DNA of 64,000 nt from the NCBI GenBank assembly GCA_907165135.1, contig OU015570.1:1116001-1180000 (forward strand), in the 5' to 3' direction. Position 1 is the stretch's first letter. Every line of letters begins with the position of its first letter. Below, in pieces: positions 1 to 63,541 of this stretch. The position numbers and the translations under genes were made by a program. The notes beneath the pieces were generated by a model, which did not search any database, was not told the origin of the DNA, and was given only the letters and a program-made list of their open reading frames with translations. The DNA is from Oikopleura dioica. Lineage: Eukaryota; Animalia; Chordata.

Positions 1-1
1 T

Positions 2-6755: not shown

Positions 6756-6756
6756 A

Positions 6757-21786: not shown

Positions 21787-22615
21787 CAGTCAGAGTAAAA
21801 GAAGGCGCGTAAATAGAAGTGTGACCTGGTCAATTAGTGAGTTTCCTTCCCACTAAACCCCGGAGCAGGCAGAAAATAATATCAATATCATTAAGTCTTT
21901 TTATATATAAGAACAATTGTAAATTCTTCTGGTTCTGAATCTAAAAGCGATAAGCTTTCCTTTTCAATCTCCTCGCTGATGCTTTTCATATCAGCGCGCG
22001 GGCTCCGTTGCGCCCCCATAGCTAGGCTAGTAGCGCGGTGTGGCATCCTGGCTCAAAGCTTGTGCAAGGGAAATGTCCAACCATCCAAACATCTTCCTCT
22101 TTGTCATCATTGTAGAGAATTTGTATCTCATTTGTTTTTGATTTTTGAAAAAGATTCTGGCGCTTTTGAGATGGCGCTAGAATAACAGTATTTTCAAGAT
22201 CAGTCAGAGTAAAAGAAGGCGCGTAAATAGAAGTGTGACCTGGTCAATTAGTGAGTTTCCTTCCCACTAAACCCCCGGAGCAGGCAGAAAATAATATCAA
22301 TATCATTAAGTCTTTTTATATATAAGAACAATTGTAAATTCTTCTGGTTCTGAATCTAAAAGCGATAAGCTTTCCTTTTCAATCTCCTCGCTGATGCTTT
22401 TCATATCAGCGCGCGGGCTCCGTTGCGCCCCCATAGCTAGGCTAGTAGCGCGGTGTGGCATCCTGGCTCAAAGCTTGTGCAAGGGAAATGTCCAACCATC
22501 CAAACATCTTCCTCTTTGTCATCATTGTAGAGAATTTGTATCTCATTTGTTTTTGATTTTTGAAAAAGATTCTGGCGCTTTTGAGATGGCGCTAGAATAA
22601 CAGTATTTTCAAGAT
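21787..22615. repeat. tandem duplication of a ~414 bp unit containing an inverted copy of 21475-21585
   Basis: Identical ORFs at 21979 and 22394; the segment gctgatgcttttc...aatgtccaa is the reverse complement of 21475-21585. Confidence 0.9.
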
Positions 22616-22769: not shown

Positions 22770-25700
22770 TTATTTTTGAGATTTTCTTGGTCGTAGTCTT
22801 TTTGACCAGGCGTTTGAATGATTAACATTTTCTATTTCATCTTGTGAAATTGACGGTGCATTTGTAGCTGGCTCAGATATTACTGTATTATCTTTTTTTT
22901 CAGTTTTCTCAGTCTTGCGGGATATTTGTGACTTTCTGTCTTGCAGTAATTTGATGTTTCTATCATCATTATTTTGTGGTGATTTCATTCCTTGCTCGTC
23001 TTTGATTGTTTTGAAATTTGTCGAATCGCCAATCATGTTTTTAAGGGTACTATCTTCGATTTCCAGAAGGTGTCTTTTCGAAAGATGTATAAGAATCGGT
23101 TATTAGAAATGGATTCTTCATTAAATTTTATGATTATACCTAATTGACAACTATTCAAAATTATCAATACATCTTGAGATATGGCCTCTAGAAGTTTTTC
23201 GAAAAAATTTTGAACTTCGATTTTTTCGATCAAGTGCTTGTTCGAAAGCTCAGAGCAAGAGCAGTATGTTGCTAGCTGTATCTATCGCGACATCAAGATA
23301 TTTTAGATTCTAGAGCCAAAAATGTGTCGCAAACTTTTAAAAAATGCTCAATTTTCGCGAAATCGGCGAGACACAATTTTCAAAAAATTATTTTTGGTAT
23401 TTTTAGTTTTTCAATGAAAATATCCTTCTGTAATTTTAAAGATTAATGTTCAAACTTTATGTAAAAAATAAAATAAAGCCAAGTTATCAGACTTGTTTTT
23501 GAGTCATTCAACCGTTTATATAGGCCATTTTGGCGAAGATGACCACTTCAAGCAAAAATTTAGCCGCTTTTCGGTTAAGCAATTGATAAACCCCTCTGTA
23601 ATAGTTAAGATCTAGGACAGATCTTATCAATGAGCCCATATGAACTCAGCAATCATTCACAAGTTCCGAGTTATTCAAAGCTCAAGTTGGGGAAATCGAA
23701 GATAGTACCCTTAAGGGACGTATAAGTGATATGTGCCTTCTGTATTCACGTTTTGTAAGATCACATTTGACAATGTACGAGTCTTTAGAAATTCTCTTGT
23801 GGACAAAATAAGGTCCAGTCCAATTGGTCCCGAGTTTCCCATCAGAAATATTCGGCTTCCAGACGAGTACTACTGTACCTATTTCTAGAACAGGGCAGTT
23901 GTTTTTGTCTCGTCGGTCATGTTTTTGGTATCGTTCCACTTGGAATCGTTGGATAGCAGGATATAATTCTGTGATGTTGGTGGTGCACAGATGTAGTTAT
24001 TGAGAGCTTTTATAAAAGGCTCTTTTGCACCATCTTCAGATTCTCCAATTTTGAATGGAACGTGAAAAGCTCGACCATAAAGGGCTTCATTGCTGGAAAG
24101 ACCATCTAGTGTTTCTTTCGGCAAATTGTTGATGTAATATTTGGCTTGTTCCCATTTTTGCGACCAGTTTCGTAAGTGCGAATAACTCTTTTACACGCAT
24201 ACTTCTTTTTAAATCGGGTCCAGTTAGAGCTTTCGAGAAGTATCCAAGGGTGATGAGCTTGTCATCTTGGTACTGGTACAATGTCCCTCCAACACTTTGA
24301 CCAGAGCTGTCTGTTACGAGTAAGAGCTTCGAGCCAAGTTTGAAGTGGCCAAGTGTCGGTTTCTTAGTGAGCTCAGAGTTCATTTTCGAAAACGCGTTCT
24401 GGTGTCGATCAGTCCAGATGAACTCTTTTTTTAAGACTGGTGAGCTCGTATAAGGGCGCTAGAATTATTGACGCGTCCTTAACGTATTTTGCGTTAAAAG
24501 TGACCATTCCGAGATATCTCTTCAATTCTTTTCTTGATGTATGAACTGTGATTTTGTTGATTGCATCGATGTGTTTATCTGTCGGCTGGATTCCTGCTCT
24601 TGAGATTTTGTGACCAAGAAATTCTGTTTCGCGCATACAACGGATATATTTTGATGCGGACAATAAAAGTCCATGTTTTTGACATTGCTTCAGGATGAAT
24701 TCTAGGGTTTTCATGTGGCTTTGAAAATCACTGTCGATGCAGATGAGATCATCGAGATAGATAATTATTGAAGGGTGATTCATCAGCTTTGACATTATAC
24801 GCGAAAAAGCACTTGGCGCAATAGCGGTGCCATACAACATTCTGTTTGCTTGATAGTGCTTGTTTCCGAAGGAGAACGCCAGTTTGTGGAAGTCTTCTGC
24901 TGCACACTGAATTTGCCAGTAACCTCGGTGATAATCAAGAGAACTGATGTAGCAGGCATCGCCGGAAGTGAGTTTTTCGCCAATTCTGTTGAATACAGTA
25001 AGCATGTGGGGTAGTGGATATCTGTCCTTGATAAGCATTTTATTTAACCCTCTAGCAGTGTTGGAAAAAACCCGCCCGCGAACCCCGCGGGGGCGGCGGG
25101 CGGGGGCTGCGGGCGCCCGCGCCCCCCGTACCCGCAAAAAATTTCGGATCTGGCCCCCGCGCCCGCCCGCGACCGCAAAAAATTTCTGATTTGGCCCCCG
25201 CGCCCGCCCGCGACCGCAAAAAATTTCTGATTTGGCCCCCGCGCCCGCCCGCGCCCGTACAAATTTTTTTCAGCCGCCCGGGGCCCCCTTCCCTCGCCTT
25301 GAATTTAAATTGAGCTTGACGGCCAAATGGCCGATTCCCCCCTTTTTCTCCCTCCTTGGTTTTTGAATTCAAGGGATTCCCCTGTTTTTTCAACTCTTTA
25401 TCACAGGTCTCATGGCATGTTAACCTTACAACGACAAACCGGAATTTCACCCGCCGACGACAATTGTGGCATGTATGGCACATGGATTTTAATGCCATCG
25501 TTTGATCAATAGAATGCCCGAAACCAAAGCCTAACCCAAACCAAAACAGAGCCCGAAACCTAAACTCGAACATGAACCTAGTGTCCATCCCAGTCTAGTG
25601 ACCAAAATGGAAGAAATGGAAGAAAAGAGAAAAATGGGCGTTAAAAAGTTTTTGTGCCATATATTCCTAGCTTTCTGAGAATCATTTTGATGTATCACAC

Positions 25701-26992
25701 TATCCCTTAACAAACATCTTAACCCGAAATTTTTGCCCACGTAAAAATGGGTATAAATAGTACTAAGCGTGAAAATGGCGATTTTTTCCGCCTTCGGGCC
25801 GTCTCAGCCCTGTTCCATGATTTTTGAATTTAAGGGCTTGACGGCCCTTCGGGCCGTCTCAGCCCTGTTTCAAGATTTTTGAATTTAAGGGGCTTGACAA
25901 TGGCTGGGAACTCTAAGTTGATCAATCTCAGTTTTGTCCCCAACCCCACCCACACCCATCGTTTGAAAAATTCAAATTATCTTAGTTTATAACTCTATTA
26001 TGGTTTTTATCAAAAATTATTTTTTTTATTTGCTGATTTCTGAACCCGCGGGGCTTGCGGACGCGAGGGTTACGGGCGCCCTCCACCCCCCGGGCGCCCG
26101 CGGGCGCGAAAATCTGCGGGGCCCCCGCCCGCGCCCGCCCGGACCCGCACGAAATTTTTGAGTTGGCCCCCGCGCCCGCCCGGACCCGCAGGAAATTTTG
26201 GAATTGGCAACCGCGCCCGCCCGCACCCGCGGAAAATTTTGAAATCGGCCCCCGCGCCCGCCCGCGCCCGCGGGAAATGTTGCGGGTTTTCCAACACTGC
26301 CCTCTAGCGTCAAGGCTTATTCTTATGCTTGAATCTGGCTTCTTCAAAATAATCAGCGGTATGTTAAAGTCAGATTGTGTCTCTTCGATAATCCCCAATG
26401 ATTTCCAACTGTCAATTTCGTTTTCAACTTGGTCTCGGATGTGCACTAGAATCGGTCGTGTTGGTTTGTGGCTCGATTTTGATTCGTCGTGAGTTGGTAA
26501 AGCGAACCTGAATCCGTGAAGTTAACCAAGATCTTCACTTGACATTGAGAATGAGAGACGATACTTCTCCACAAGTTCAGTAAGAATCGCTTATTCGACG
26601 TCAGTTGCGGCGCCAAAGCTTCCAATTTTCGGAGAAAAATTGACTTCATTAGCTAGAGACTCGCGTGTTTTTCGGAATATTTCAAGTGAAGCGGCTTCTG
26701 ATTCAGATTTGAGGTCCACTTCAATGATTGCTGAAATTTTGATAAGATTTGACGCGTTTTCTGGAGATACTGTATTGACTCTGTAATTTTCCAGCGTAAC
26801 GTAATTCTCTCCAGCATTAAAGGACAATTTTTTCAGGCAATCGAGCCCAAGTATAATCGGTACACTAAGGTCATTAACCACCAAAGGAGAGCGATTCAGG
26901 GTAAAATATCCATCCGGTGAATTGATTCGAAGTTCCACTTTAGAGCACATTGTTTTTCTGGATCTTAAGGGACTCCGCCGACCCAGCTTCAC
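22770..26992 (-). pseudogene. pol: Ty3/gypsy pol (protease C-terminus, RT, RNase H, integrase C-terminus), element B
   Basis: PIILGLDCL; IPLIILKKPDSSIRISLDARG|LNKMLIKDRYPLP; YLDD; LLVTDSS...YFSKAL; WTGPYFV GPY/F; integrase core deleted. Confidence 0.92.
25056..26299. mobile_element. hAT-like non-autonomous element inserted in RT
   Basis: Perfect 8-bp TSD ccctctag (25048-55, 26300-07); TIR CAGTGTTGGAAAA; GC-rich cccgcgcccgccc subterminal repeats. Confidence 0.9.
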
Positions 26993-27329
26993 GCGCGCGG
27001 CTCGCTCTTCTTCACTCTCACTTTCAATGGGGACAATATTTTTCGATTTTCTTGAAATTTTAGGACCTAACTAAATCTTTTATTCTCTTTCACATCCACC
27101 TTTTAAAATTTTCATACGTTGTAGTTACGCTGAGTGGCGGCAAAAACTTGGACGCTCGATTTCAAGTGTACATAAGTACTCGAAATAATCGGATTGAGAC
27201 TTTGATACTCGACTCATTGGAAAGCCCGTAGTCTCTTCTATAAAGGCTACGCTGTGAGATTATTTGAAAATAAATAAAATTAATATCATTGAGCGATAAA
27301 ATAAAGGGACACAGCGGAGGCCGCGCGCT

Positions 27330-27958
27330 AACAATGTAAAAGGGCGGATTTCACGCCGAGCAATCCAGGTGACCCGCATTAATCCCTCGATAATCAGATA
27401 AGAAAACAATTCTTGGAAATCTAACAGCCTCCGAAATTTCTACTATGAAGTAGAGGAACTTGTCCGAACAACCTTAACTACTGGAAGTGAACCAGTTCCG
27501 GACGAGATCGTCAAGCAAATTGCCTTAGAGGAATTCCTAAGCAAATTGCCAAAGAAAATCCAGAATCATGATATGCTTAATGAGTTTCGTAAAAAGGTTG
27601 ACAGTAAAAAACGCAAGTATGACGATGTCATTGAAAAATGCATCGAGTTATTCCACAAATACAAAAATGGTGAAATGGAAGTCAATACCATTCGCAATGA
27701 CAAACAAAACTCCGGAAAATTCAAGTCTTACAACAACCGTAAGCCTGGCAATAAACAAGGCGGAAAGGTAATTTGCCATTATTGCCAGAAGCCGGGTCAT
27801 AGGAAACCGGATTGTTGAAAATTAAAGTACGACATGTCACAGAAGAAAGATGGCGAAAAACAGAAAATTATCTGTAATTTTTGCCATAAACCCGGCCACA
27901 AAGCGAATGTTTGTCGAGCGAAACTTGCGGGCGACACTGGGAAATTGATCGGGTAGGT
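27330..27958 (+). pseudogene. gag: gag remnant with two CCHC zinc knuckles
   Basis: CHYCQKPGHRKPDC*...CNFCHKPGHKANVC; stops and frameshifts. Confidence 0.85.
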
Positions 27959-28446: not shown

Positions 28447-29110
28447 GGGTTAGGTTCCTTGGGTTAGTTTCTACCTTGGGTTAGTTTCTACCTTGAGTTA
28501 GTTTCTACCTTGGGATAGTTTTTACCTTGGGTTAATTTCTACCTCGGCTTAGTTTCGAAAGGTTTCAGGGTTAACAAGACCTCCGGGAAAGTCCTCAGGG
28601 AAGTCTCGTCCCTCGTGGAAGTCTCGTCCCTCGTGGAAGTCTAGTCCCTCGTTGAAGTCTCGTCCCTCAGGGCAGTCTCGTCCCTCAGGGCAGTCTCGTC
28701 CCGCAGGGCAGTCGCGTCCCTCAGGGAAGTCTCGGCCATTCGGACGATAGGCGGCCGGTCTTTAATTCGACCTGGACGCGAAGAGTACTCGAACCTTGGG
28801 TAATTCCTCGGGTAATTCCTTCTGCCTTTGGAAGTTTTTGCCCTCGGAAGTTTCTGCCTTTGGAAGTTTTTGCCCTCGGAAGTTTATGCCTTTGGAAGAT
28901 TCTGCCTTGGGAAGTTTCTGCCCTCGGAAGTTTCTGCCTTGGGGAGTTTCTGCCCTCGGAAGTTTCTGCCTCTGGAAGTTTCTGCCCTCGAGAATTTCTG
29001 CCTTTGGAGGTTTCTGCCCTCGGAAGTTTCTGCCTTTGGAAGTTTCTGCCCTCGGAAGTTTCTGCCCGGAAGTTTCTGCCTTGGGAAGGTTCTGCTTCGG
29101 GAGATTTCTG
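28447..29110. repeat. three adjacent 16-18 bp minisatellites
   Basis: ttgggttagtttctacc (28447-28550); ggaagtctcgtccctc (28590-28730); ggaagtttctgccctc/ttt (28820-29110). Confidence 0.85.
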
Positions 29111-30062
29111 CCCTGGGTTTATTCCTACCCTGAAAGTCTTCAAGTTAGCATTTTCGCGTCTGCTGTACGTGGAAGTTGTCAACCACGCGTTTTCGCGTTT
29201 GGGAGGTTGAGGACCTCGGCCATGGTAACTCCGCTAACGACGTCAAAATCTGTAGGGAGGTTCCGGACCTCGCTCTTATCGCCCGTCCGGCTCCGGTAAA
29301 AGCCCTAACAACCACAAAAGTCTAAGGGAGGTTTTCAACCGCGGCCCTTATCGGCTCTTTCACTTTTACTCTTCCCTGGCTGGCAAGAGAAGGCCCTTGT
29401 AAATAGTTTTTTTACGACCTTTTTTGAATAAGCAGATTGTTTGATAAAACCACAGTGAGACAAATATAGGGAATGTTCTATCATTAGGGCTAGAATCGGA
29501 AGCTTAAAAGTGGGGCCGCAACGCCGTAAACACAACATTATCGTCGTAAATCTGTAAGGCGGAGCACGCTGAAGTCGGTCAAAATATCATAGATGTCTTG
29601 CAGAGCAGCTGGTACCGGAGAGATGCCATAAATTCCAAAATTGCGAAATGCGCACCACGAGGGGGCCAGAGCTCGACTAAGGAAGACCGGAAAGAAAAGA
29701 ATCGAGACCAGATCATTCGCACACTTCGAGAAAAGCAAGACAACCAGAGTTCGATTAATCATCAGCTCTTCAAAACTGAGAGAATTCGCCACGGCGCCCA
29801 TTATGCCAGACACAGTTGCCAATCTCGGTACAAAGGTAGTTATACTTGCAAATTTAAAAGTAAACGGGAAAACAGTAGTTAAAAAGAGGGAATAACAAGA
29901 AAAATTAAGTACCACTTGACCGAAGAAAACATCAGCAATTTCTACGAAATCATCAGCCTAGCAATTCCATCTATCAATCCGCCAGAACACGTTCTTAGGC
30001 TCATTAGGAACCTCAAGGAACGAAAAGAATACCTCCGGAGATTGACATAAAGGAAGAACGCC

Positions 30063-30656
30063 ATGCTCTTCGGCGACGTGCTGGCTCTCGCAACGAAAGT
30101 AGACCTGGACTCGCCCCTTCACGACATCACGTTCCTAGACAACCCAAAAACGGCATTTGCCGTGATCGCCGAGATAGCTCGCCTCAGGGATCTTCACGAG
30201 AACACGCTCGGGTGGCCAAGTGCTCACGACAGCTTCGAGATCAAATTCGCACTACGAGACTTCACGGCCGCGGAACGAATTTCCGGTTGTCTGACATCGG
30301 CCATCTGGGCAGACAAAGAAGATAACCCCGGGAGTGTAGATTACACTCCGATCGTGAATTGGGTGCTCAAGCAGAAGAACAGGCAACACTCAACGGCAAC
30401 AATCAGACAAACAAGGGGATGCCTCGACGACGCCGCCAACATTCTTCTTGGTGTCACAACAGACGACGACTGCATCCTCAGCCTCCGCGTGCACCGAAGA
30501 CTCACTGTTGATGAACACTTCCGCATAACCGAAATAGTGAACTCGTCCCTCAACGACGCAACATGGACCGTGACTCGACGAAGTGGATGGATGCGAATCG
30601 CAAGCGAGGCCATTCTTCACCGACTCTTGAGCGGAGAAGTCCAGCTGATCGAATAA
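30063..30656 (+). CDS. hypothetical protein (197 aa), intronless
   Basis: Open ATG-to-stop frame with globular-protein composition; no motif recognised. Confidence 0.45.
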   Translation: MLFGDVLALATKVDLDSPLHDITFLDNPKTAFAVIAEIARLRDLHENTLGWPSAHDSFEIKFALRDFTAAERISGCLTSAIWADKEDNPGSVDYTPIVNWVLKQKNRQHSTATIRQTRGCLDDAANILLGVTTDDDCILSLRVHRRLTVDEHFRITEIVNSSLNDATWTVTRRSGWMRIASEAILHRLLSGEVQLIE

Positions 30657-31396
30657 TGCCAACAACACGTAGAAGCCAATTCAAAGAAGAAATTCCACTC
30701 AAACGTCCTTGCTGCTTATTGCCATTGTTTTCGATTTTCCTTCTATCACAAATCTTAACTCAACTCGGACCCGTTTATTTTCCCTAAAAATTGCATCACT
30801 TAAACATAAATCCTCTTCCATCACCAAATTACCAGCGTTTTATCAAATCAACATGCTTTTGATCTGATTCCTTTCCGGAAATAAGAATATCAAACGAAAT
30901 AAACTGCGAAAGGTTACTAACGGTCAATCCTTTAGAAAAATGATCATGGTCATGAATGTGATGCAGACGCTTTACGAACTAGCGATGATCGAATCCCAGA
31001 GCCCCGATGGAATTTTCCTGGACTTCACACCGACCGAGTTTTTTCTTCGACCCCGGGGGAGTTCTAAGGTAGGAGAGGGGAAAAAAGAAGAGTATACGGA
31101 TTAACGACTCGTTAAAGATGGGCCAGAGAATGCGAATCATCACAATTCTACTTGGACTCGCGCAGAATGAAAAGCCATACAAAAGATGCCAGATTGCTTA
31201 CTGGAGCCTTTGGAGAGAACTCATGCGAATGGATTTAAAGATCGTGGAAACAATGAGCGCGGAAGCCGTTGGAATTTACCTGGAAATAGTCACTCTTGAA
31301 GCAAGAAAGAATTTTAGCTGAAAGTAAAGGAATGAGCTGTAAATAAAAAAGCAAAAGGGAGAATGAACCCTCGAGATTATAAAACCTCTATTCAGC

Positions 31397-31813
31397 ATGA
31401 CGCATGACGAACTTTTAAAAATATACACGATTCTTAACTTAGACTCAGCAAGGCGTAGATGTCGAGAGAATGGTATTCTCGGGAACGGTTTGATAACTCC
31501 AGGAATTCTCGATCAATTAGCAGAAATGGAGTCGGCAATAAGAACGCCTTGCCTAGTTAGTCTGGCATCCGAATTCTTCGAGCATAAATCACACGCAAAT
31601 AGAAACATGGACCCGAGAGAAGCTACGCTCATACTCGCCCGCTTGGCCGGGGAGATTCTGGACCTCGTCTTTGAGAACAAAGAAGACAGCCGGCAACTAA
31701 GAGTCGCATCTACAATACTTAAGAGTAGTCTTCTTCTTGAGGAATACGAAGATAGTGATAGAACAATAAGATCTGCCATTCTCGAGATGAACCTCAACTT
31801 CTTGATTGAATAG
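31397..31813 (+). CDS. hypothetical helical protein (138 aa), intronless
   Basis: Open ATG-to-stop frame; no motif recognised. Confidence 0.4.
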   Translation: MTHDELLKIYTILNLDSARRRCRENGILGNGLITPGILDQLAEMESAIRTPCLVSLASEFFEHKSHANRNMDPREATLILARLAGEILDLVFENKEDSRQLRVASTILKSSLLLEEYEDSDRTIRSAILEMNLNFLIE

Positions 31814-31849: not shown

Positions 31850-32700
31850 CATCAATTCAGTTGACCCCGAAACTGCCACGTATCTGGTAGTCCCTCCGAC
31901 CATCTTCCTCGGAACCTTGGGAATCATTGTCTGCGTTTGATTGTCTCGGATAGGAGTTACGGCCTATCCGAGATAAATCCGCCTTTCAAGTCGCCCAAGC
32001 AATGTTCAGTATCTTTATGGTACGGGGCCCGCCGCTTAATGTCACGTCCGACAATGCGATGGAATTTAAAAACGGCATGCTTGGGAGTCTACTAAGATCA
32101 TTCGGAGTAGCCGAAGCACATGGAACACCCTACCGACCCCAATCACAGGGTCTCGTCGAACGCCTGAATTAAAAATTTAAAAAAGCTGTTAGAACTTATG
32201 GGAGCCCAACAAGCTAGGACTTGCTTCTCCCTGGAATCGCATTATCAATTAACCTAACGGTTCATAAAGCTTTAGGAATCTCGCCTTTCTACGCATTACA
32301 TGGATGGAATACTGCACGGAAGAAAGCGAGACCCTGAAAGATGTACCATACAAGCATAGAGACTGGATCGCCTTAGCCGGGAAACATATGACTAAAACTC
32401 TTAGCCTGCTATCAGGCCGAGCGGTTCGTCCTGCGGAGAAATCGGTTTCTGACGCACCCGGTGTATAAGACGTTAACCAGGAAGTATTGCTGAAGCACGA
32501 GCAGCCACCAGCTGTATGTGGTAAGGTATTCCAGCCCTGGAAAGGCTGATTTTTCGTGAAAAAGCGCATTGACACGAATGCGTACCTGCTCAGTAATCCA
32601 GAAGTTCCTCGACGCCATTTCATTGCGCATAGGTCACGGATACGACCTATCGACCGTCACAAAGATGGCGAAGACTCAAAAGAAGAAGAAGGTCGACCCG
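31850..32700 (+). pseudogene. pol: Ty3/gypsy integrase (core plus GPY/F), 5'-truncated
   Basis: EPWESLS; GIIVCV.LSR; PIRDKSAFQVAQAMFSIFMVRGPPLNVTSDNAMEFKN...TPYRPQSQGLVERLN; GISPFYALHG; QPWKG*FFVKKRIDTNAYLL. Confidence 0.9.
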
Positions 32701-33085
32701 AAAAAGTAAGTGGCTATTGATAACCAAGTCTTCAAAAGAAATATAGGAACTAGATGAGACGACCGAGGAAAACGAGCTCGAATGTCCAGAGCCACCGAGG
32801 TATCCGAAAAGAAAGAGAGCTCCGGTCAACTTCTGTCAGCTTAGACCAAGGTAACTCCCTAAGGGACAGGGATCAACGATAAGTCATAGAACTAAACTGT
32901 TGTTAAAGGCTACCGAGGAACGCTGCGAAAAAAAAAGAGCCCCATTATTACAAATGGAGACAAATAGAAGAAACAAAGAAGAAGAAGTTTATGCTGTTTG
33001 AGTTGAAAAAGTTCAATCCCTTTTAAATTCAAGAAAAAAAAAATAAGTTGTTTATGGGACCCTGTCTGAAAGGAAAACATTTAGA

Positions 33086-33352
33086 ATGTATTATGATGGC
33101 GTTCCAAATATAAGTGTGAGTTGCAACAGCCTGGCAACCAGCGACAGCCGTGTTCGAGCGACATTGACCGCGATTGCTCAAAATACCTGGCTTGCCTTTG
33201 GCCTCCTCGCGCTTATTTTTCTGGTTGGGTTTGGCGTGGGCAAGACTGTAACACTGTGTTTCCTGAGAATCCTCAAAAAAAGAAAAATCCGTGATATTTC
33301 AGGAAGAAAAAATGAACAGACACTACCGTCATCTCCGACCATAGTAATGTAA
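33086..33352 (+). CDS. small single-pass membrane protein (88 aa; may be the tail of a longer decayed ORF)
   Basis: WLAFGLLALIFLVGFGVGKTVTLCFL followed by polybasic RILKKRKIR. Confidence 0.5.
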   Translation: MYYDGVPNISVSCNSLATSDSRVRATLTAIAQNTWLAFGLLALIFLVGFGVGKTVTLCFLRILKKRKIRDISGRKNEQTLPSSPTIVM

Positions 33353-33721
33353 GTGTCTTAATATGGGAAAAGATTAACTTAGCCTTCTTAGGCCTACGTC
33401 TTTTCAACGGGAGCCCTGGCCTCAAAGAGCGATGCTCTACCCCGCCCTCCTGGAAAGAGCATCTCCGCACAATTCCGAATACTTCGTATAAATCGCAGAA
33501 AAGCGAGACGCTCTACAATGTCACTGTTAAACCTCAATTCCATTATGTCTCCTGATGAGTGAACATAACTTGATTAAGCCGAGTAATTATGCTATCCCTT
33601 TCAGACTGTCGCATAGGATAATTAATAACTTAAAGGTGGTTGACCGAAAAACAGTGAGCGGCTCAGTCCACAGCGCAGAGTTAAAAATCGCTAGTGGATT
33701 GGATTCAAATCATGCCTTTCG

Positions 33722-34789
33722 ATGCTTGTCGTCTGCTCAACGGAAGAAATCCGAATCCAAATCATGAACAATTTTCGGATCGCCTGCCCGCTTGATCAGC
33801 TACCTTGTCAACCGGACCAGTGTGAGCGCATTGATTTAGAAGTTTCAAAAGACTTCGAAAGAATCTACGAATTCAGTGAGAAACGCAACGCACATATTAA
33901 TGGATTTCGAACAGCTTACAAGGACTTGGGAAACCCGCACAAGATGGCTAGTAGATTCGAGCGCTCTTCTCATAAAGAACACGATGCTCGTGGACGAAGG
34001 AAGATATCGCTGCTTAATTGAAGCAAATAAGAAATGGAACGACGAGGGCATAATACGCGCCCTTGAGACAAATGTCGTCACATTAGTCCCACCCAAAATC
34101 ATTTCTCTCGAAAAGCATCGGCAAAATCTTAAAGCGCCACAGGATGAGTGGTAAGATGTAGCATCGTGTGTCTACGATCAAGGAAAACCGCCGGCAATGA
34201 TCGTCTGGACAAATAGTAATGGAGATAGGATCGAGACAGAATTTAAAACAAAAACTCGATCGAATGGGCAACGTACACGCCAGACAATATTTTTAAGCCC
34301 ATTGCCTGTTTAAATAATCTTGAAATCAAGCGCAAAATTATTCATGAACACGTAGAAGAATATTCGGCTGAAATCCGTCTCAACGTTATTTTCAGGCCCA
34401 CAAAACCGGTTATCAACAGAGAAGATGGAAAACTCACATGTGTGTCGACTGCGAATCCGAGCCCAAACATCACATGGACAATGACGAACGTAAATCAAGT
34501 TTTAATTTAATCCGTGGAGTCCGAGAACTTAACTCTGGAGGAAAATATAAACCCGCTCGACCTATACACCTGCTCCGCCAGTAATGTTATGGGAACGGAA
34601 AGCCTGACCATACGATTACCTAGAGAAATAGGGAAAGTTGTAAAGCACTTCCTACTGATCTCGGCTTTATTAACAATTGGACTCACTTGCGCTATAGTCG
34701 TCATCAATGTCTGGAAACTTATGCATCTGGAAGAAAGAGAAGTAAACGAATCACGCATAATAGTGGGAACGAGCTTTTCCGCCGTTTAA
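33722..34789 (+). pseudogene. intronless nectin/CADM-like IgSF type-I membrane protein (V + C2 + I/C2 domains, TM, PDZ-type end)
   Basis: FRIACP...SALLIKNTMLVDEGRYRCLI; VASCVYDQGKPPAMIVW...LEIK(R)KIIHE; LTCVSTANPSPNITW...LYTCSASNVMG; TM FLLISALLTIGLTCAIVVINVW; ends FSAV*. One stop and about three frameshifts. Confidence 0.85.
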
Positions 34790-35221: not shown

Positions 35222-35715
35222 GGAGGTTTTTAATCTCGCCCCTGCCGATTGTGAAATCAACAAGGAGGTTCTCAGCCTCGTCCCTGCCGATGCTGAAATC
35301 GCCAAGGAGGCTCTCAACCTCGCCTCTGCCGACGATATTGCAGCTTAACTGCAATCAGAAGATTTTGCAGCCAAACTGCAAAGCCGAAGATTTTGCAGTC
35401 AAACTGCACGGCCGAAGATTTTGCAGCCAAACTGCAAGGCCGAAGATTTGCAGCCAAACTGCATGGCCGAAGATTTGCAGCCAAACTGCATGGCCGAAGA
35501 TTTGCAGCCAAACTGCATGGCCGAAGATTTGCAGCCAAACTGCACGGCCGAAGATTTTGCAGCCAAACTGCACGGACGAAGATTTTCAGACCGAAACTAA
35601 GGGTGTAAGGCCAACCACGCCTCTGCCGACATCGGAATTGCCAAGGAGGTGCTCAACCTCGCCTCTGCCGACGCTGGAATCGCCGAGGAGGTTCTCAACC
35701 TCGCCTCTGCTTATG
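35222..35715. repeat. 42-bp coding-like repeat (xLAxADxEIAKEVL) interrupted by a 27-28 bp array (35340-35590)
   Basis: ggaggttctcaacctcgcctctgccgac units; tttgcagccaaactgca(c/t)ggccgaaga about 8 times. Confidence 0.8.
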
Positions 35716-36243
35716 CTGGAACCTGACTCAGATCGCCCGACTGGCCTTAGGCCACACAACTGGCCGCGGTCCACCCGACTCGCCCTTGTCCACCCGACAC
35801 GCTTCAGCTACAAAATGTGAACCCAGTTATCCGACTGGACTTTACCCCGAGACCGGCCGAGCGCCTTTGTCTTCAAGTGACAAAAGTGACTTTGGTCAAA
35901 ACAAGCAAGCTGTTGTGGATATACCAGGTAATGCTCAACTCAAAAGTCTGAAAATAATGTATAGAAATAATAGCTATCCTAATGGACGACTGGGATCTAG
36001 CAAGAGGAGCTTCGGCGCGGGGCCAAAATGGGTCCTCCCTTACACCGAGGCCGTTATGGGCGAGCAGCATGACCCTTCACACCGTAGCCGTTTCTGACAC
36101 CTGGAGTTGGCCCTTTATAAACCCTACTGCTTTTTACTTTTTATCATTCATATAGAGATAGTTCAATACTGCAATAAACAAGAGATAGATTAGATAACTT
36201 ATGTGTTTTTGATATATATAAGGATAGATAAGCAAATCCTACA
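35604..36243 (+). repeat. putative LTR
   Basis: TGTAAGG start and ...CCTACA end (TGTA/TACA termini); tttataaa at ~36114; aataaa at ~36173; followed by a PBS. The 5' boundary is uncertain. Confidence 0.55.
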
Positions 36244-36244
36244 A

Positions 36245-36257
36245 TGGTGTCAGAAGT
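36245..36257 (+). promoter_or_regulatory. primer-binding site TGGTGTCAGAAGT
   Basis: CA|A|TGGTGTCAGAAG, a common gypsy-type PBS one nt after an LTR-like CA end. Confidence 0.7.
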
Positions 36258-36999
36258 TTACGAATTCAACTAGCTCTTAGGAAAGACTTTCCCTTCATGT
36301 AAGTAACAGTCGGGTAGACTATAAAAAAGAGTCTGCGATGGACTTTAATCTAAGGGTCCGAAATGACCTACAAGCTACGAGTCCGGAATGACTTTAAAGC
36401 TACGAGACTGAGATGACTAAAAATATATAAATCCGAAATAATTTTGTAAACTTCGAGTCCAAGTGACTACATAAACACGTGTCTATATCGGAAATAGATA
36501 AGAGTCATCAATGACTGAAAATAATGAGTCTATTAGACTGTTAAAACACTGCTGGTTTGCAAACAGCTGTTTAAACGGAAGGTCGGTTGGCTCCTTCCTT
36601 GAGTTAATTCCACTCTCTCGAAGCACTTGAATTCAAGTACTTTCCACTTGAGATCAAGTGTTTACACCTGTCAGCTAAATAAACTAAACAAAGCATTATG
36701 AGCAATTTCCGGTGAGTAATTGCCCTGCACTTGAAGTACTTGGCACCTGAACATATTCTGAGCGCGAATTTTGAACAGGCAAAGTAGGCGCACTTGCGCA
36801 CGGGAACACTTGACTTTTTTTTTCGTTTCCGTTATTTGGACACGTGACTTATCAGAACTTGTGCTCAATTGACTGTCACACGCTTATGAAAATACCTTAC
36901 TTTTTTGAGTCAATGGAGCATTATAGCTCATATACGGATGAAATGAATGAGTAAAGCACTCTTTGAGGAACGAGTTGATCTTCGATGCAGGAAATTTAA

Positions 37000-47868: not shown

Positions 47869-49320
47869 GATCGGGTCACTCATGAGAGTTTTCTAAATTT
47901 TTTATAATTTTTGACCTAGAGTGACCTCAGATGACCCCAAATGACTTCTTAAACATTTTTTAATAAAAAAACATAGATAAAAAGTGTTTGGGAGGCATTT
48001 GTGACACAAATGGTGTACTTTTTGTGAAAAAGTACTCAATTTTTGTCGAGTTCCCCAACTTCAAGAGCCTATAGCTCCTCAGGAACCCCCGGGTCTCAGT
48101 ACTTTTCTATATCTCAAAATGACCCTCAGAGCCTGGGCTACAATCTGGGATAGGAGGCACCTTCTGAAAGGTCGAGTTATTGCCTCAAAAATTCTAATTT
48201 CTGGAGTTGGCCAGATTTTGGGACTTTGGACGTACCTAAATGCCCTCAGGGTACGAGATCACCCCCAAGTATCAATAGTCAAAATGTTTCCCAGCTTCTG
48301 GGCTTTCTAAAACTGTATTATAAGCCCACCCTACTAAGCCCTAAAAAAGTCAAATTATTAGTGATTTCCCCTACTTATGAGCTGGTACAGAAGTTGGAAG
48401 GCAGCGGACAAGCCAATAGGAAGGACACTGTTCACATAAATTGTGCTTCTTACTACCTTCGGGCTGCCGCCCGGGGGGGAAGAATGATGGGATTATCTCC
48501 ATCACCTTCTCACTCTCGGGCGCTAGCCCGCAACTTCAAATATATACTCCGTTTTTATCAGAATAAATGAGATAATTAACAATACGATCTAGAGAGTGTA
48601 CGTCCACCTTGATTGCATAAAGCTGACCTTCAGAGATGGAAGTATGCAATTTGTCTGGTCCCTCGGACCAGAATTCGACCAAAATCTGAATTCTTGCACT
48701 CGGGACCAGAATTCCAATCTGAACTCGAATTCTGGTCCCAATGGCCAGGAAGTCAACAATCGAGCTCAAAAAGGACTCAAAAATCGGGAAAACTCTGACA
48801 AACTCCAGTTGAAAATCGTCTGAATGATATCAGAAGAATTTGATCTACTCCCCGTGCCCCTCACCACGGGGCTCCGCCCTTTAGGTCCTAAAATGCCGAA
48901 GTCTAGTCTAGGGTTACTGAGGGTTACCTTATGTAACCCTAACTAACCCTTGCCTATCCCCCTAGGGTGAGTTTGTTCCTTCATTTTGGCCAGTACCCCC
49001 AAACACTAATATTGACTAGAAATATGAGACCAGAATTGAATGTAATTACTCGTATAATTCGTATCAAGAAGTGAATAATAATAATTGGGACCAGAATTGG
49101 GGTTCAAAAGCGAATTCTGGGCCCAGGGACCAGAATTCAGATCATGGTCGAATTCTGGTCTGGAGGACCAGACTAATTGCAACCCTCCTCAGAGATATCT
49201 CCACCATTTGGTGACAGAAGAGTTTCTGCCCACATCCCGCGATGAGATATACATACAATGTCACGGCGGTGGATGGCGAATTCTTGGATGCCATCGGCAT
49301 CCTTGAACAATCGCTAGACG

Positions 49321-50800
49321 ATGGCACATCAGATTCTGCCGTGCTCAGTTATCTCAAAATATGAAAACTCCAATGCCATGACGCCGGTCCCTCTAAGGAT
49401 AAGGACAAGCTTGTTTGAAAGGACAGTAGATTTGTACGATCTGGACATAGGTAGACTAATCTGTGTTCCAACAAATCGGCTGCCAAAGGAAAGGTGCTAC
49501 GAACTGAAGGCGCCACAAGAAATGACAGATGTCACAAAGATTATAGAAGAATTAGACAATATATCGCCGGAGCTAAAAAATCAAGTGAATACGTTCAAGA
49601 TTGGTCAGGCTACGCAGGTCAGGACCGAAGACATGGAGAGCCTAACAAGGAATGTCGAGACTTTTCTAGAAGAAGGGCGTCAGAAACTTCACTCTCAGGC
49701 TCCGTTGGATGTAACATCAATTCTACCGGAGTATAAGCAGTTCACTATAAGCAGTTCAAGGCTAAAATGAGTGAACTTCGTCAGACAATCGATGATTCGC
49801 AAGGGGAACTAGCGAAGGATGAAAACTCGATCAGAAGATTGGAAGCGGAGAATGCCCGGATAAGGGACCAGGCGAGAGATCTGAAAGAGATCTGAAAGAG
49901 ATTCTTCAAGGAATTAAGGGATTTCGTAGACAAATATCTCCAATACGAATTTCTCCCTCGAGGAAGACGCTCAAGAAATCCATGTCATCAGCGACGCAAT
50001 CGACCCCGACTGGTCCCGAGAGGCGCCCGGACGGGCAGACAGAGACCGTGGATGAACCAGGGGCAGCGACCCTTAATGAACCACCGCCGGTGGCAACCGC
50101 AACGGTAACCACAGCTGAAGGCCGGCCTCATGGTGGTCCTATCCCTGTGCGACCGCAAAGCTCTGGTAATAAACAAGATAACAGCCAGGTAGCGCGTGAA
50201 AGTGTCAAGAGAAGTCAACAGGAGGCGTTGGAAACCCTACGGAGAATGGAAAAAACACGGAAAGGATCAATCGATCAATGGAAGAAGAGGGTTCCATCGG
50301 AAGACAAGTTCGGAATATGGCAAAGAATGCATCCCGATACATGCAAGAAGCCCCGGAACTAGATGAAGACAGAGGTTGAAGCCGAGAAAGACGAGTGAAC
50401 GGCAGGCGTCGAACAAGTCCGTCCATTGAAAGGTATCGCGATAGTAAGGATCATTTCTATGATCAGTACGGATATCGTTTTGATTATGACTATGGGGAGG
50501 AACCGCCTCCGGCAGGACCATGCCTACCTTACCGGATAGACGCGGCGAATCGTCAGGTTCCCGGACTTGTGCATGGCATGCCCGAAGGCGAGTATCGGAA
50601 CAGTGTCCCTGATAAGGGGAGCGGATGAGGACAAAGAGGTCCACAGAGATGGGATCTACCGGAACCCTACCGACCAGAATTTTATCAAGGCCGACAAAAC
50701 ATGTATCGCGGATGAGGCCAGGATAATGGACATGGTCGGTATTCAAACACAAAGACGAATATCAAGGCTCCCATCTGGCTGGGCGGGAGAATAATTCTGT
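49321..50800 (+). pseudogene. decayed gag-like/ORF1 region (coiled coil, Pro-rich)
   Basis: Series of frameshifted plus-strand ORFs upstream of a protease. Confidence 0.45.
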
Positions 50801-51305
50801 GGACAAAACTTTTCTGTGGAAACAGAACTATTCTGTGAAAAAACAGAACCATTCTGTTTGAAACAGAACTATTCTGTGTCGAGCTGAGCAAAATTCACTT
50901 TGATTATGTCGTAGATAGCCTTTAATACTCTGGAACTCATGTCAAAGAGTGGAAAAGGATTGACTTCAGTCGGTCTTTGAATCTTGCAGCCAAAAAGAAT
51001 CTATAACAATGATAGTTTGTTAGTAGAAGCTGAACCGAAGAGGCTCTGAAGCACGCTACGGGCCTACGGCCCTTGCGCGCATTTTCTGATAGAGAGCTCA
51101 TTGGGTTGGCAGGGGCAGTCTTTTTCTACCGCTGGGACTCATTTTTGGCAGCAAACAACTTCTGCATTCGCACATTTATAGTTGTTTTCGCCAAAAATTT
51201 TTTTTTTCTCACAGAATTATTCTCCCGGAAAGGGGGGGTATTATCGTGAGAATAATTCTGTTTTCCACAGAATAGTTCTGTGCACAGAATTATTCTCCCG
51301 GCTGC
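50781..51305. mobile_element. MITE with gggagaataattctgtg TIRs and acagaa repeats
   Basis: Inverted 17-bp match at both ends. Confidence 0.65.
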
Positions 51306-51683
51306 CCCTCCCATCTGACAAAAGGGAAGTTCTCAAGCGCAGCGAGTCAGCAGCCAGAATGACTACATCGACTTTCTGTTGGTCTTTCGAGATGTCACGT
51401 CCATGACGGACTTCGAGATTATCTACTGCAGCCTCGAGAAAAGTGAACGGATGGATATCTTTCGGGAGCTTTTAGACTCTAAAATTTAGAGGAAACACGA
51501 AACCACCTTCCATCGTTCATTGATCACCTTCGAAAGGCCCACGGCGGCTCGGCGATGCGACAACGCGCAAACTTGGACTCTCTGAAACAGGGCTCGATGA
51601 AATCGCCGCATTTAACCCTTTTAAATCATACAATTTAATCATTCTGGCCTTTCTCACTTACTTACTTATAAACTTACATAGTC

Positions 51684-52790
51684 ATGATTCCGCGGATACC
51701 CGTGTTGTTAGCAGACATTGCTCTGGCGAAGCGCCCGTCATCAATTTATGCCACCCAGGTGTTGGTGGACACAGGAGCAGAACTAGGATTGCTCCACCAA
51801 GATCACCCCCTAAGTGCAGAAGCAGACAATTTGCCACAGGCAAAGAAGTTTGAAGGCTTCAATGCGAGGATTTCGGGAGGATCGAAGAAGGTCGTTAGTG
51901 TCACTCTCAGACATCCACGTAGAGGGAACGTAATCGTCCCGGAAGTGAAGCTCTATATAATGGAGAACCAATCATTTGTAATGATCCTACCTTTTCCGAT
52001 TCTTTCTGATTTCCGGCTTGGGTTCGATGTGCGATATTGCATTATGACTAATCGTTGGTCAAACGAGAAGCATATTCTCCGGCTTCTTACGAATGACACT
52101 ATACGAATATCTCAAACGGTGTCTCTGGAGCCACTAGGACACGCACACATTCCTTATAATGACAATGTCATTACTGTTCGACTTCTCAGGCCTGAATGCA
52201 GAAGAAAAGGAGTTGGTCATGAGCCTGGTGGAAACATGGAATCATATTTACAGCAGATCAGACCTGGATATTGGGCTAGGCTTCCGGTACAACTACCCGT
52301 ATCGGATAAACACCTCAGTGGACAGTACTCAGCCAAGAATATTTCAGCAAGTGGCAGTGGCCTACCAGGAAGGCCTGCATCTGCATATTGAAACTCTCGA
52401 GGGGCAGTGGGTTGTCAGGAGAGTGCCTCGGATCGAGACAATAACCTGTTCATGGGTTATCGTCAAGAAATCATCGGGCAAGCTCCGAATTTGTCTCGAT
52501 CTTAGGCCTACAAACAACCTTTGTTGCGGTAGCACGGTGCGCCTTCTCAGGCTGAATCGAGCTTGCAGCATATCCAACTGAAAAATCTGATGATACTATG
52601 GAGATGCTTAGAACTGATGCTTAGATGTCAATTTCCGGATGAGGTCATGACCGACAATCACGCCTCTTATAGAACAGCGGAATTTGAGGAGTTGTGTAAC
52701 AACTTGGCCATTGCTAGGGATGGCATACAAAAAATTAAATCGATTGCGACGTCGCCAGGGAAAACAAAGGGTAGCATCTTGTAAAACGGA
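51684..52790 (+). pseudogene. pol: scrambled Ty3/gypsy pol (protease, RT N-terminus, integrase-core scrap)
   Basis: VLVDTGAE; WVIVKKSSGKLRICLDLRPTN; FPDEVMTDNHASYRTAEFEELC. Confidence 0.85.
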
Positions 52791-53255
52791 AAATTTTGAT
52801 TCAGATAGGACCCAAAAAAAATATTTTCGTAAGTAGGTACCTGGATTTTTAGGCACTTTTCTGTAACTCCTCTATATGATACAAAAATTAATTTTTTCAA
52901 GTGAAAAGTATATATAGTTCAAGTGGTAGTGTATTTTCATGTGAAAAATCCATTTCTGCAAAAAAATTCAACCGCGTAAGAAGAAAAAACCGAGAAAAAT
53001 GCATGCAAACTGTCTCGAGAGAAAAACAAAAATCGGTGGCGCGGCGATAACGTAACAGCGCGGGGGCCGCGTGGCGGTGCTGTTTGCCCGCTAGCCTAGC
53101 TCAGCATTGAAAGAGCTCTTTTTCTCTTTAACTAATTTTCAGAAATAGCTTATTATTTATTACTTTAACTTATTTCATAAATACTGATATTTATTAATAC
53201 TCTAGATTTTACAGTGTATAATTGAATCATAATCGATTAAAATTGAAGTAATCTA

Positions 53256-54260
53256 TTAACAAAAAATTTATAAAATACTAATTTTCTTCCTTCTTCTTTT
53301 CGAATAATTAAAAAAAGACTTTATTTTCATTCGCTTTTTTGTGCTCAATCTGTTCGCGTCGAATTTAATCTTCAAGTTCTTCGTCAAACTGCTCTGACTC
53401 CAACAACTCTTTGATTTGGTTGTATCCGTGATTTCCAGTCGGCTGGGTCGATTGTTAGATGATCAGATTTTTCCGGTGTCCAGTCTTCTCGTAGAACGAC
53501 CATGAATTTCCCGATCTACGACTTGGAAAGTTTGGGACGATCTTTGAGGAGAAAGATGGAATAAGAATCGTTGGAAGCAGATTTCAAGATTTATTGACCG
53601 CCGTTTCTGAATCAACCAAAGGGCCGGTAAGCCCCTTAAATTCAAGAATCAGAAAATGGGGCTGAGACGGCTCGATGGGCCGGCAAGCCCCTTAAATTCA
53701 AGAATCAGAAAATGGGGCTGAAACGGCCCGAAAAGCCGGGAAGCCCCTTAAATTCAAAAATCATAAAGTGGGGCTGAGACGGCCCGAAGGGCCGGCAAGC
53801 CCCTTAAATTCAAAAATCATAAAATGGGGCTGAAACGGCCCGAAGGGCCGGCAAGCCCCTTAAATTCAAAAATCTTAAAATGGGGCTTAGACGGCCCGAA
53901 GGGCCGGCAAGCTCCTTAAATTAAAAAATAAAAATGGGGCTGAAACGGCCCGAAGGGCCGGCAAGCCCCTTAAATTCAAAAATCAGAAAATGGGGCTGAT
54001 ACGGCCCGAAAAGCCGGCAAGCTCCTTAAATTAAAAAATAAAAATATGGGGCTGAAACGGCCCGAAGGGCCGGCAAGCTCCATGATTTAAAAAATAAGAA
54101 AATGGGGCTGAAACGGCCCGAAGGGCCGGCAAGCCCCTTAAATTCATTAATCAGAAAATTGGGCTGAGACGGCCCGAAAAGCCGGCAAGCTTCTTAAATA
54201 AAAAAAATAAAAAAATGAGACTGAAACGGCCCGAAGGGCCGGCAAGCCCCTGAAATTCAA
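53256..54260. repeat. ~365 bp unique segment plus ~12-unit GAA-hairpin array; direct repeat of 60012-60690
   Basis: attaacaaaaaatttataaaatac...ccaaagggccggtaagcccc is essentially identical at both sites. Confidence 0.9.
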
Positions 54261-57386: not shown

Positions 57387-57396
57387 CTATTCAGGG

Positions 57397-59103
57397 TTAC
57401 ATTTGGATAAAATTTGAAGATTGGTATGAGTCTTTCTTGTCTTGCTCGACATTCATTGTGTTCATCTGACGTCGGCGTCGTGGCTTTGGGCACTCCTTAT
57501 GCCAGTGTCCTTTTTCGCCACAGTTGAAGCACTCACCTTGTCCGGGTTTCGTCTTTCCCTGTGAGCTCTTCTGGTTGCCTTTGTCTTCAGTTTTTCCACC
57601 GTTTTTCTGGCCGCCTTTCTTGAAGCAGCTTGACGCGCTATGTCCTTTCTTTCCAAAATTCGTGCAATTTGGAGCGTTTCTGCATTCGCTGAGGGTGTGG
57701 CTGTCCGTGTTGTGGTAAGAACACCATTTTTTCTTTCTGCCTTCTTCTCCACTTTTCTTCTTGTTGTTTCTGTCAATAAGAGCGTTTATACTCTTTCGAG
57801 TCTTGTGAAGATTAAAGATTCGATTTGCGAGTGCAACGCGTCTGCCAGGATCGTTTGGATCGTAGACATCCAGTCCCCAAGTTTCGCTCGTTTTCACGTA
57901 TGATGGGATAAGCCGTTCAAAATGCTCCATAGCTGTACTGTTGACGTCTGTTGCATCGAGCGTTGGATATTTTATTCGAACAAGCTTTCTTATATTCTCG
58001 AAAAATTTTCGAAGATCCTTGTCTCTTTCTTCGGAGAACGCGAGCGTGGACAGATTCATACTAGCCTCACTTTCATCAATCTGGATTTCCTCCTTCACGA
58101 CGTCCAAGAGTGTACCATAATCGTGTTGGGACCTGTTTTCGAATTCCTCGATGATATTTCCGAAGTTTGCCGCTGGAATGTTTTCAAGAACTAGTTGTAT
58201 CTTTTCTTTGTCAGTGAGCTTTTTCGATCTTCCCAGCTCGACCATAAAGACGATTTTCTTGCCCCAGTCTTTAACTGACAGCCCTGATTGTTTGAGTGGG
58301 GGAATTCTGTGTTTTTTCCAGCCGCTTGAATTGGTCTCTTCGTTTTCTTCCTTCGGTTCGGGCGCAGCAGTGGTGTTGACCATTTTAGAAGCTGCATTTA
58401 CCCGTTTGATCGGGGTTCTGCCCGCTTGAGGTTGGGGTCTCGTTTCCCAGATACTTCGTACCCTATTGTACCTTTCAGTATCATCCCTCAAGGATTCGTT
58501 GATCTGCTGTGTAACTTCTTCTTCAAGCACATCCTCCGCGTCCTGGTATACTGTTTCTTCTCCAGAGCTCATCATCGTTGCGTCTGCGTCCGGCAGAGTA
58601 TTTGCTGCATTTGATGGATCCATTGTTTGTTTTACCTTAAGTTCCAAGTAGGTGTCCTTGGGTGTTCCTAGTTGGCCGAGAGTATAGATTTGATTCAGTG
58701 CAGTTTTGATGGTATCCGAAAGTTCGCTGCAATCGTTGTTAACGAGTTCGTTAAACTGTACAACGGCTTGACGATTACGTAACTGCGCGTCCTCTTTATA
58801 TTGCTTGAGAGTTGAATTATAGTTAACAACTTCGTTTCGGTAAGTTTAAGACTTTAACTGGATCGGTAGTATGAAAAAACGTTGGTTGAATTCGCAAAAT
58901 TGATACTCGAAAAAATGAAGATTCAGTTCTTTGAGTCTGTCGATGACAATTTGTTTTTCCGGAACGACAGGGTTCTCCTCGTAAGTAGCCTTGGTTCGGT
59001 CGTCCTCAAACAGTAAGGCCAAAAAGAAGGCAAAACTTCGTATACTTCTTGTAACCTGACTAGTGTATCTCAGTTTACTTTGCAGATATCTGTCTGCATT
59101 CAT
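57397..59103 (-). pseudogene. gag: gag of element C with three zinc knuckles and one premature stop
   Basis: MNADRY start at 59103, in frame with the 416-aa ORF apart from one TAA; CSYHNTDSHTLSEC, CTNFGKKGHSASSC, CFNCGEKGHWHKEC. Confidence 0.9.
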
Positions 59104-61525: not shown

Positions 61526-61580
61526 TGTAAGGGGTTGTGAATACCCTAATTGACGTCAATATCCATTGGCGTGCTCGGTT
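61526..61580 (+). promoter_or_regulatory. LTR remnant (40 bp, TGT...CA) plus PBS-like TGGCGTGCTCGG; mirror copy at ~59347-59401
   Basis: TGTAAGGGG...TATCCA|T|TGGCG about 260 nt upstream of the gag ATG. Confidence 0.4.
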
Positions 61581-61824
61581 CCCCCAACTACACTGCGGGA
61601 AGCCACTCGAGCCGCAGCTCGCGCAGTTTCAACTTACTGTACTCAGTCGTCAATTCCCCCCGTTTCCGGAATAAACTCAATTACGGCAAACCAGCGTTGT
61701 AAAGTGTATCTGCATTATAGAGAAGGTGCGTGGTCTTGGAAGACACGGAAGACACGACCCCCTCATCTGGTGACTGGTGAAGCGTCACTTGGACACGCCG
61801 CCGAAGGAAGGGTTACGGATATTT

Positions 61825-63531: not shown

Positions 63532-63541
63532 CCCTGAATAG

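Follow-up and report, generated by a model that had tools for sequence, protein, structure and literature searches.

A decayed three-Ig receptor gene between a gypsy-type integrase and an LTR end in Oikopleura dioica, possibly a captured receptor in an env slot

Can a host receptor take the place of env in a Ty3/gypsy-type retroelement? The question is raised by a locus of the larvacean Oikopleura dioica (assembly GCA_907165135.1, contig OU015570.1, positions 1,116,001 to 1,180,000 of the forward strand, a stretch of 64,000 nucleotides hereafter called the window), where an integrase, a small membrane gene, a gene for a receptor with three immunoglobulin (Ig) domains, tandem arrays and an LTR end follow one another on the + strand within 2.75 kb (Table 1). 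A preliminary description of the window had proposed that an adhesion receptor travels here as retroelement cargo in place of env. The concept of a receptor standing in for env is not new. In CrocERV31, six copies carry a three-Ig nectin3 ORF that replaces env and is under purifying selection, and its identity to the host gene is about 76%; it is read as captured host mRNA (Chong et al., 2014, PMC4299795). The Oikopleura locus resembles CrocERV31 in having a three-Ig receptor ORF in the env place, but CrocERV31 is a vertebrate endogenous retrovirus, whereas here the integrase is gypsy-type, the host is a tunicate, the gene is a single broken copy and the slot holds an additional small membrane gene. 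A gypsy-type tunicate case with such a second gene would be new: the literature searched, a collection with most subscription journals outside it, yielded no description of an LTR element, gypsy or larvacean, with an Ig ORF, and a term search in the accessible text of a survey of env-bearing gypsy elements (PMC13524379) gave no mention of immunoglobulin.

The receptor gene is read along a first frame from 33695, a second from about 33940 to 34310 and the first again to 34789. As a control, the window was cut into 1242 six-frame pieces and scored with a profile built from 250 Ig domains of outside proteins, and four stop-to-stop pieces of this gene take ranks 1 to 4. Furthermore, phmmer searches of the PDB with pieces of the gene returned, among the matches listed, solely Ig-superfamily proteins (best E 4.9e-6 and 3.9e-5), and the alignments to nectin-1 (query 16–108, E 1.6e-4; query 14–103, E 0.028) span both domain junctions. 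Domain 2 resembles Pfam C2-set_2 (E 0.0022) and domain 3 Pfam Ig_3 (E 0.00026), each under the curated cut-off, and the C-terminal half of domain 1 is similar to V-set and I-set proteins; domain 2 lacks its second Cys at the expected position. The first half of domain 1 gives no Ig signal on its own and lies outside the top 20 of the 1242 profile-ranked pieces; there is no Trp between Cys 33785 and Cys 33945, there are two extra Cys, and we infer the V type of this half from its Cys spacing and from the second half of the domain. Of the three Ig domains described earlier, the second, the third and half of the first are thus borne out by profile, PDB or Pfam, whereas the other half went undetected as Ig. 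The membrane helix and the C-terminal S-A-V of that description were both found. With Ig domains built on a Cys/Trp core and one membrane helix, the translated product can be assigned to the Ig superfamily as a single-pass receptor. The ATG at 33722 is not secure as the true start, with too few hydrophobic residues following it to make a signal peptide of sufficient length. A fourth Ig domain further upstream (33531–33764 or 33316–33552), considered by eye and from two to four weak local matches per bin, was rejected because it had no Pfam or Ig PDB match and fell outside the top 20 of the 1242 pieces.

Table 1. Features of the integrase–LTR interval and its flanks (positions in the window; aa, amino acids; TM, transmembrane helix).
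Feature	Position	Strand	Remarks
ORF A, uncharacterised protein	29550–30656	+	one frame, two internal stops
ORF B, broken uncharacterised protein	about 30930–31813	+	adjoins the truncated integrase
Decayed gypsy-type integrase, core and C-terminal part	31850–32854	+	stop 32852–32854
Small single-pass membrane gene, exon 1	33086–33348	+	33-aa ectodomain, TM 33185–33241; unbroken
Predicted 43-nt GT-AG intron, small membrane gene	33349–33391	+	ORF-end intron scan
Predicted exon 2, small membrane gene	33392–33491	+	33 codons ending E-Y-F-V, stop
Three-Ig receptor gene	about 33695–34789	+	three-frame translation; no canonical introns
Leader and Ig domain 1 (V-like)	33695–34090	+	Cys 33785 and 34011; frame change near 33940
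Ig domain 2 (CD80-like C2)	34095–34390	+	Cys 34167, Trp 34206; stop 34152; frame change near 34310
Ig domain 3 (I/C2)	34400–34620	+	Cys 34439 and 34571, Trp 34475; stop 34508
TM and tail of about 25 aa ending S-A-V	34649–34789	+	helix 34649–34705, mean hydropathy 2.72; stop 34787–34789 directly after S-A-V
AATAAA	34809–34814	+	20 nt past the Ig gene stop
Tandem arrays	35235–35721		42-bp (35235–35332), 27-bp (35328–35586) and 42-bp (35612–35721) units
LTR-like segment	35604–36243	+	3' end 36243 supported; 5' candidates 34972, 35113 and 35604
PBS-like motif	36245–36257	+	the leader behind it contains a 25-bp repeat (36356–36422)

The family to which this receptor was first referred, nectin/CADM-like, is recovered in architecture but not in sequence. 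The members of the nectin, nectin-like (CADM) and PVR family have V, C and C domains, one membrane helix and a C-terminal PDZ-type ending (PMC7286890). The Ig gene likewise has a V-C-C ectodomain, made of three Ig domains with no fourth upstream and with half of domain 1 read by spacing alone, together with one membrane helix and a PDZ-type ending; it differs in its short tail, which by eye has no band 4.1 motif. The tail, of about 25 aa, contains no Tyr, ends in S-A-V and carries none of the afadin-type PDZ ending, band 4.1 and ITIM motifs of the family. Nectin and CADM consensus endings differ from S-A-V. In the PDB search, neurofascin, LRIG1, NCAM and contactin score above nectin-1, though the nectin-1 alignments are long and collinear, and domain 1 is equally close to the V domains of the butyrophilin/B7 type. 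One natural Ig piece of 104 aa, searched with HMMER against 1.84 billion representatives, gave 51 matches to generic Ig proteins, at 27–44% over short stretches and mostly summed across many repeats; three of four short matching proteins that were examined are V-set proteins, two of them with butyrophilin-type C domains. Sequence matches are therefore spread over many Ig proteins, and the product appears nectin-like by its architecture, while its sequence does not place it in the nectin family. A word search with the first frame of the gene read through (about 200 real residues) found none of 561 candidates (200–637 aa) to be related, and neither an intact copy nor a host parent of the gene, both of which had been named as possible support for capture, turned up in these word and HMMER protein searches with partial queries. 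No related locus was found in metagenome contigs searched with an integrase piece and an Ig piece, or in viral contigs searched with ORF A and an Ig piece.

The gene is dead, as first described, although the damage consists of in-frame stops at 34152 and 34508 and of frame changes near 33940 and near 34310, two of each, in place of the one stop and about three frameshifts counted before. Assembly error was rejected as the origin of these breaks. Four DNA runs from three studies (X1, which may itself be the source, X3, X4 and X5) were compared with the window at 80% likeness; the Ig gene lies inside one contig each in X1, X3 and X5, which agree with the window at the breaks and show, among the differences listed, no indel within the gene and none at either stop, and the coverage of X4 over the gene is thin and gapped. 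Contig depth across the gene is one in all four runs. Their contigs hold no second copy at 80% likeness or more (copies below 80% would escape), and no further copy with the same integrase and LTR flanks, as would be expected of mobile cargo, was found there. Introns were rejected as the cause of the breaks by an intron scan, except at the first frame change, where GA-AG candidates, 37 and 58 nt long and with a common end at 33914, would restore the frame; the second frame change and the second stop had no candidate, and the first stop solely frame-incompatible ones. GA-AG introns account for about 12% in Oikopleura (PMC4122922), and the first frame change may be explained by such a non-canonical intron of 37 or 58 nt, a type whose loose candidates are common by chance (six over the four breaks). 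The earlier statement that the gene has no introns is accordingly narrowed: about 1.07 kb lack a canonical intron, and because GA-AG candidates end at 33914, the word intronless is limited here to canonical introns. No poly(A) run follows the gene, the longest stretch of A being 5, and direct repeats in the flanks reach no more than 9 nt. Four RNA runs yielded 0, 0, 0 and 2 reads over 11 kb, too sparse to bear on expression.

On the upstream side, the core of the integrase (31957–32310) matches the gypsy-type P0002 in tblastn with E 1e-14. The protein is 43% alike to P0002 and P0003, two unnamed integrases, and resembles Pfam rve (E 0.00088); by these similarities it is classed as a gypsy-type DDE integrase. 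No gag, RT, RNase H or protease precedes it; ORFs A and B stand there instead, and the missing gag/pol part may have been deleted. The last 201 aa of ORF A have no Pfam match and no credible PHROG or Atlas match and form a singleton cluster without a longer relative. Its start (29550–29680, + strand) shows a His/Cys pattern that by eye is like an integrase zinc finger, with a weak PHROG HNH match (E 0.017); Pfam and tblastn gave the zinc finger no support. ORF B has no Pfam match over 31367–31810, and by eye it contains a candidate 49-nt GT-AG intron (31069–31117). Upstream of ORF A, at 28457–29114, three tandem arrays with 17-, 18- and 16-bp units adjoin one another, and they show no likeness above controls to the arrays near the LTR. 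Counted by eye, breaks affect about 10 of 335 codons in the integrase versus 4 of 355 in the Ig gene, a difference that is not significant (p 0.11) and that allows a similar age for the two. Beyond the window locus, a diverged X1 contig of 3484 letters matches the integrase end (32761–32820) with 8 differences and runs 2467 letters past it, as against 2380 letters in the contig of the window locus itself. The letters with which the diverged contig continues are related to those of the window at a level that 10 of 3000 random places equal, for a motif picked post hoc, and X4 has the same loose end at the integrase end. The diverged contig would fit as a hint of a sibling element, in a family whose layout includes a long post-pol region.

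Between the integrase and the Ig gene lies the small membrane gene, which the preliminary description did not place there and which bears on the argument through its intron. An intron scan of ORFs of at least 80 aa found 2 of 169 in the window that end on such a GT-AG intron and gain an extension of at least 30 aa, against 0 of 3107 simulated ORFs, of which 7 had any intron. The two introns are of 43 nt (33349–33391) and 42 nt (6371–6330), and the two ORFs are probably the two spliced fragments that had been held up as a contrast to the intronless Ig gene. The lengths of 42–43 nt agree with those given before, and one of the two lies inside the integrase–LTR interval. Introns of this size, like the env-bearing gypsy fragments of the window, fit Oikopleura. 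By this prediction the small membrane gene is likely spliced. Reverse copying of a spliced RNA should remove any intron in sense orientation, and the intron within the interval therefore sits badly with passage through RNA, unless the genomic RNA evades splicing as that of Tor3a must for its env (PMC4402516).

The small membrane ORF, with six K/R among the 15 residues after its helix, passes a filter for proteins like sORF2 and FAST (60–210 aa, one membrane helix, an ectodomain of 10–50 aa and a polybasic patch), one of 2 among 106 ATG ORFs in the window to do so, the other being a broken env tail. Since the sole other ORF to pass is an env tail, the small gene may be an env remnant. Its E-Y-F-V ending is, we assume, of the PDZ type and like the endings of CADM proteins. 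The insect sORF2/FAST-like proteins lie in sense behind pol in 7 of 22 lepidopteran cases, and some sORF2 also have no MGxxxS/T motif (bioRxiv 10.1101/2025.03.14.642691). The small membrane ORF is like them in its position, in sense behind pol, and in its build, with an ectodomain of 33 aa, a single membrane helix and a polybasic patch; it is unlike them in the absence of the MGxxxS/T myristoylation motif from its N-terminus, in having no Tyr right after the helix, in being likely spliced and in its PDZ-type tail end.

Downstream of the Ig gene, the tandem arrays of 35235–35721 occur also at other loci in the DNA runs. The 5' end of the LTR is uncertain because 35604 has the 42-bp repeat on either side of it; at that point the purine tract is weak (9 of 12, with 78 of 829 TGT sites equally good), and the alternative start at 34972 has a 10-nt purine run ahead of it at 34964, chosen post hoc. 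Other copies in X4 and X5 match the LTR end up to 36263 and then continue into a diverged leader, whose relatedness is equalled by 28 of 3000 random places, again for a motif picked post hoc. The PBS-like motif presumably stands for priming by tRNA-Leu. A PBS and leader behind an LTR are the mark of a 5' LTR. No partner LTR and no target-site duplication were found within the 64-kb window, and a tandem duplication of one unit was rejected, the leader past the PBS having no upstream match. The position first given to the gene, between a gypsy integrase and an LTR with PBS on the same strand, is upheld for the integrase, the LTR end and the PBS, and left unsure for the 5' end of the LTR. Further along, in a stretch at about 49205–52900 (+), a second PBS-like motif near 49212 is followed by uncharacterised ORFs, a protease and RT fragments.

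Taken together, these data favour, over each of its rivals, the reading of the Ig gene as a receptor captured into the env slot of what is now a dead Ty3/gypsy-type LTR element, though this reading is itself evenly balanced between true and false. Position, strand, spacing and the lack of canonical introns fit the cargo that had been proposed, and none of the support sought for it appeared. In its favour are the roughly 1.07 kb without a canonical intron, with nectin-1 aligning straight across both domain junctions, and the lack of any sign of a junction (repeat, poly(A) or duplication) between 32854 and 35190. Debris of transposons makes up most of the window, and env-like fragments occur in two further elements, in one case directly after an integrase tail. 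Against the cargo reading, a PBS and leader come after the LTR, in the manner of a 5' LTR, and the integrase has nothing upstream of its core and adjoins an unrelated ORF, a truncation that makes the locus a patchwork. The single copy in the four DNA runs, the lack of a specific relative in the protein searches, the missing partner LTR in the window, the weak purine tract, the likely spliced gene in the interval and the GA-AG intron that may explain the first frame change also count against it. That the Ig gene travelled with the element is plausible and unproven.

The main rival account, possible but less probable, is that host DNA, comprising the spliced small membrane gene, the Ig gene and perhaps ORFs A and B, decayed in a repeat-rich region between unrelated insertions of an integrase and an LTR. 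The intron inside the interval, the PBS and leader behind the LTR, the single copy in four DNA runs and the failure to find a 5' LTR or target-site duplication in the window would all follow naturally, the more so as nested transposon fragments across the window make chance neighbours common; yet all parts lie on one strand, no junction is visible between the integrase stop and the Ig gene or between the Ig gene and the arrays, about 1.07 kb lack a canonical intron, and the limited protein searches found no parent gene. Introns would also survive in an element that moves without an RNA step, and one likely and one possible intron, the absence of RT, RNase H and protease ahead of the integrase, five ORFs on one strand and tandem arrays at both ends of the block could be taken for the remnant of a DNA-mobile element, such as a Ginger-like transposon or a Polinton-like virus, whose integrase was gypsy-type and whose cargo took up several genes in the block from ORF A to the Ig gene. 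This is unlikely, given that the block ends have no inverted or direct likeness (best local scores of 31–32 against controls of up to 57), that ORFs A and B match no family and that an LTR end with PBS closes the right end. Least probable, at a very low level, is a processed pseudogene that a non-LTR element made independently and that came to lie here by chance: the lack of canonical introns, the AATAAA and the single copy agree with it, whereas the longest run of A counts 5 and no flanking direct repeat exceeds 9 nt, although both marks could have been lost with age.

If the Ig gene is captured cargo, host mRNA for a three-Ig single-pass receptor would have entered the post-pol (env) slot of a Ty3/gypsy-type element by template switching during reverse transcription, a step that would remove introns and leave no poly(A) tail. 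The receptor would be made from a subgenomic RNA, as Tor env is; in Tor4b of Oikopleura dioica, pol and env are set apart by a gap and env has an internal promoter (Henriet et al., 2015, PMC4402516). Cells expressing the element would display an adhesion-type receptor that holds them against a neighbour, and particles would pass over. The authors of the CrocERV31 study speculate that nectin binding aids infection (PMC4299795), and a decoy or interference role may also be conceived for the Ig receptor. Later, the 5' part of the element would have been lost and all its genes would have decayed in a repeat-rich region, with the LTR that ends at 36243 serving both as the 3' LTR of this element and as the start of a second, truncated unit. 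A more ambitious version, to which we attach little credence, is that a gypsy-type family of a larvacean exchanged env for a contact kit, in which a small FAST/sORF2-like membrane protein and a captured nectin-like receptor would together attach a somatic cell that expresses the element to a germ cell, so that particles cross with no virion envelope.

Capture of host sequence by LTR elements has been described across animals, where pieces of host mRNA, at times from two genes, lie inside a discontinuous LTR element as a result of template switching (Tan et al., 2016, PMC5131818). Those retrocopies are young and have known parents and microsimilarity at their joints, none of which is readable at the Ig locus, and the captured piece here looks like a whole ORF. 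Tor Env, in turn, has a furin site, a fusion tripeptide and conserved cysteines, and the portions of that report available to us name no Ig ORF for Tor elements (PMC4402516). Third ORFs are very varied in bdelloid elements (PMC5408684). Were the cargo reading correct, a three-Ig receptor would have taken over from env on two occasions, once in a reptile retrovirus and once in a retrotransposon of an invertebrate chordate, which would suggest cell adhesion as a selected substitute for an envelope. It would bear on how somatically expressed elements gain access to the germ line, in an animal with embryos that lend themselves to injection and observation, and would record an Ig receptor lineage without a close relative in the protein collections searched. 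Should it be no more than host DNA flanked by insertions, the gene is a pseudogene of the ordinary sort.

The remainder of the window offers material for comparison. An ordinary env slot is seen at about 4300–5950 (−), where an integrase-like tail directly precedes a broken env-like ORF; this ORF includes a hydrophobic peptide and a basic cleavage site and had no PDB match; at 1–773 (+) there is a broken C-terminal env-like part with a basic cleavage site, a hydrophobic peptide, a Cys-rich stretch, a membrane helix and a tail. The ORF at 5972–6835 (−), which contains the predicted 42-nt intron (6371–6330) and a C-terminal Cys/His finger, has no Pfam match and resembles, we presume, the region ahead of Polinton DNA polymerases. 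At 27402–27958 (+), a gag end with zinc knuckles points away from fragments of protease, RT and integrase at 22770–27070 (−), an arrangement that reflects either an inversion or two elements. Identical direct duplications of at least 300 nt occur at 21855–22569 and at 53255–53554 and 60012–60311. Finally, 56928–60012 and 60915–64000 form an inverted duplication of about 3 kb, 100% identical, that contains a gag gene and reaches the end of the window; it is either a very young palindrome or an assembly artefact.
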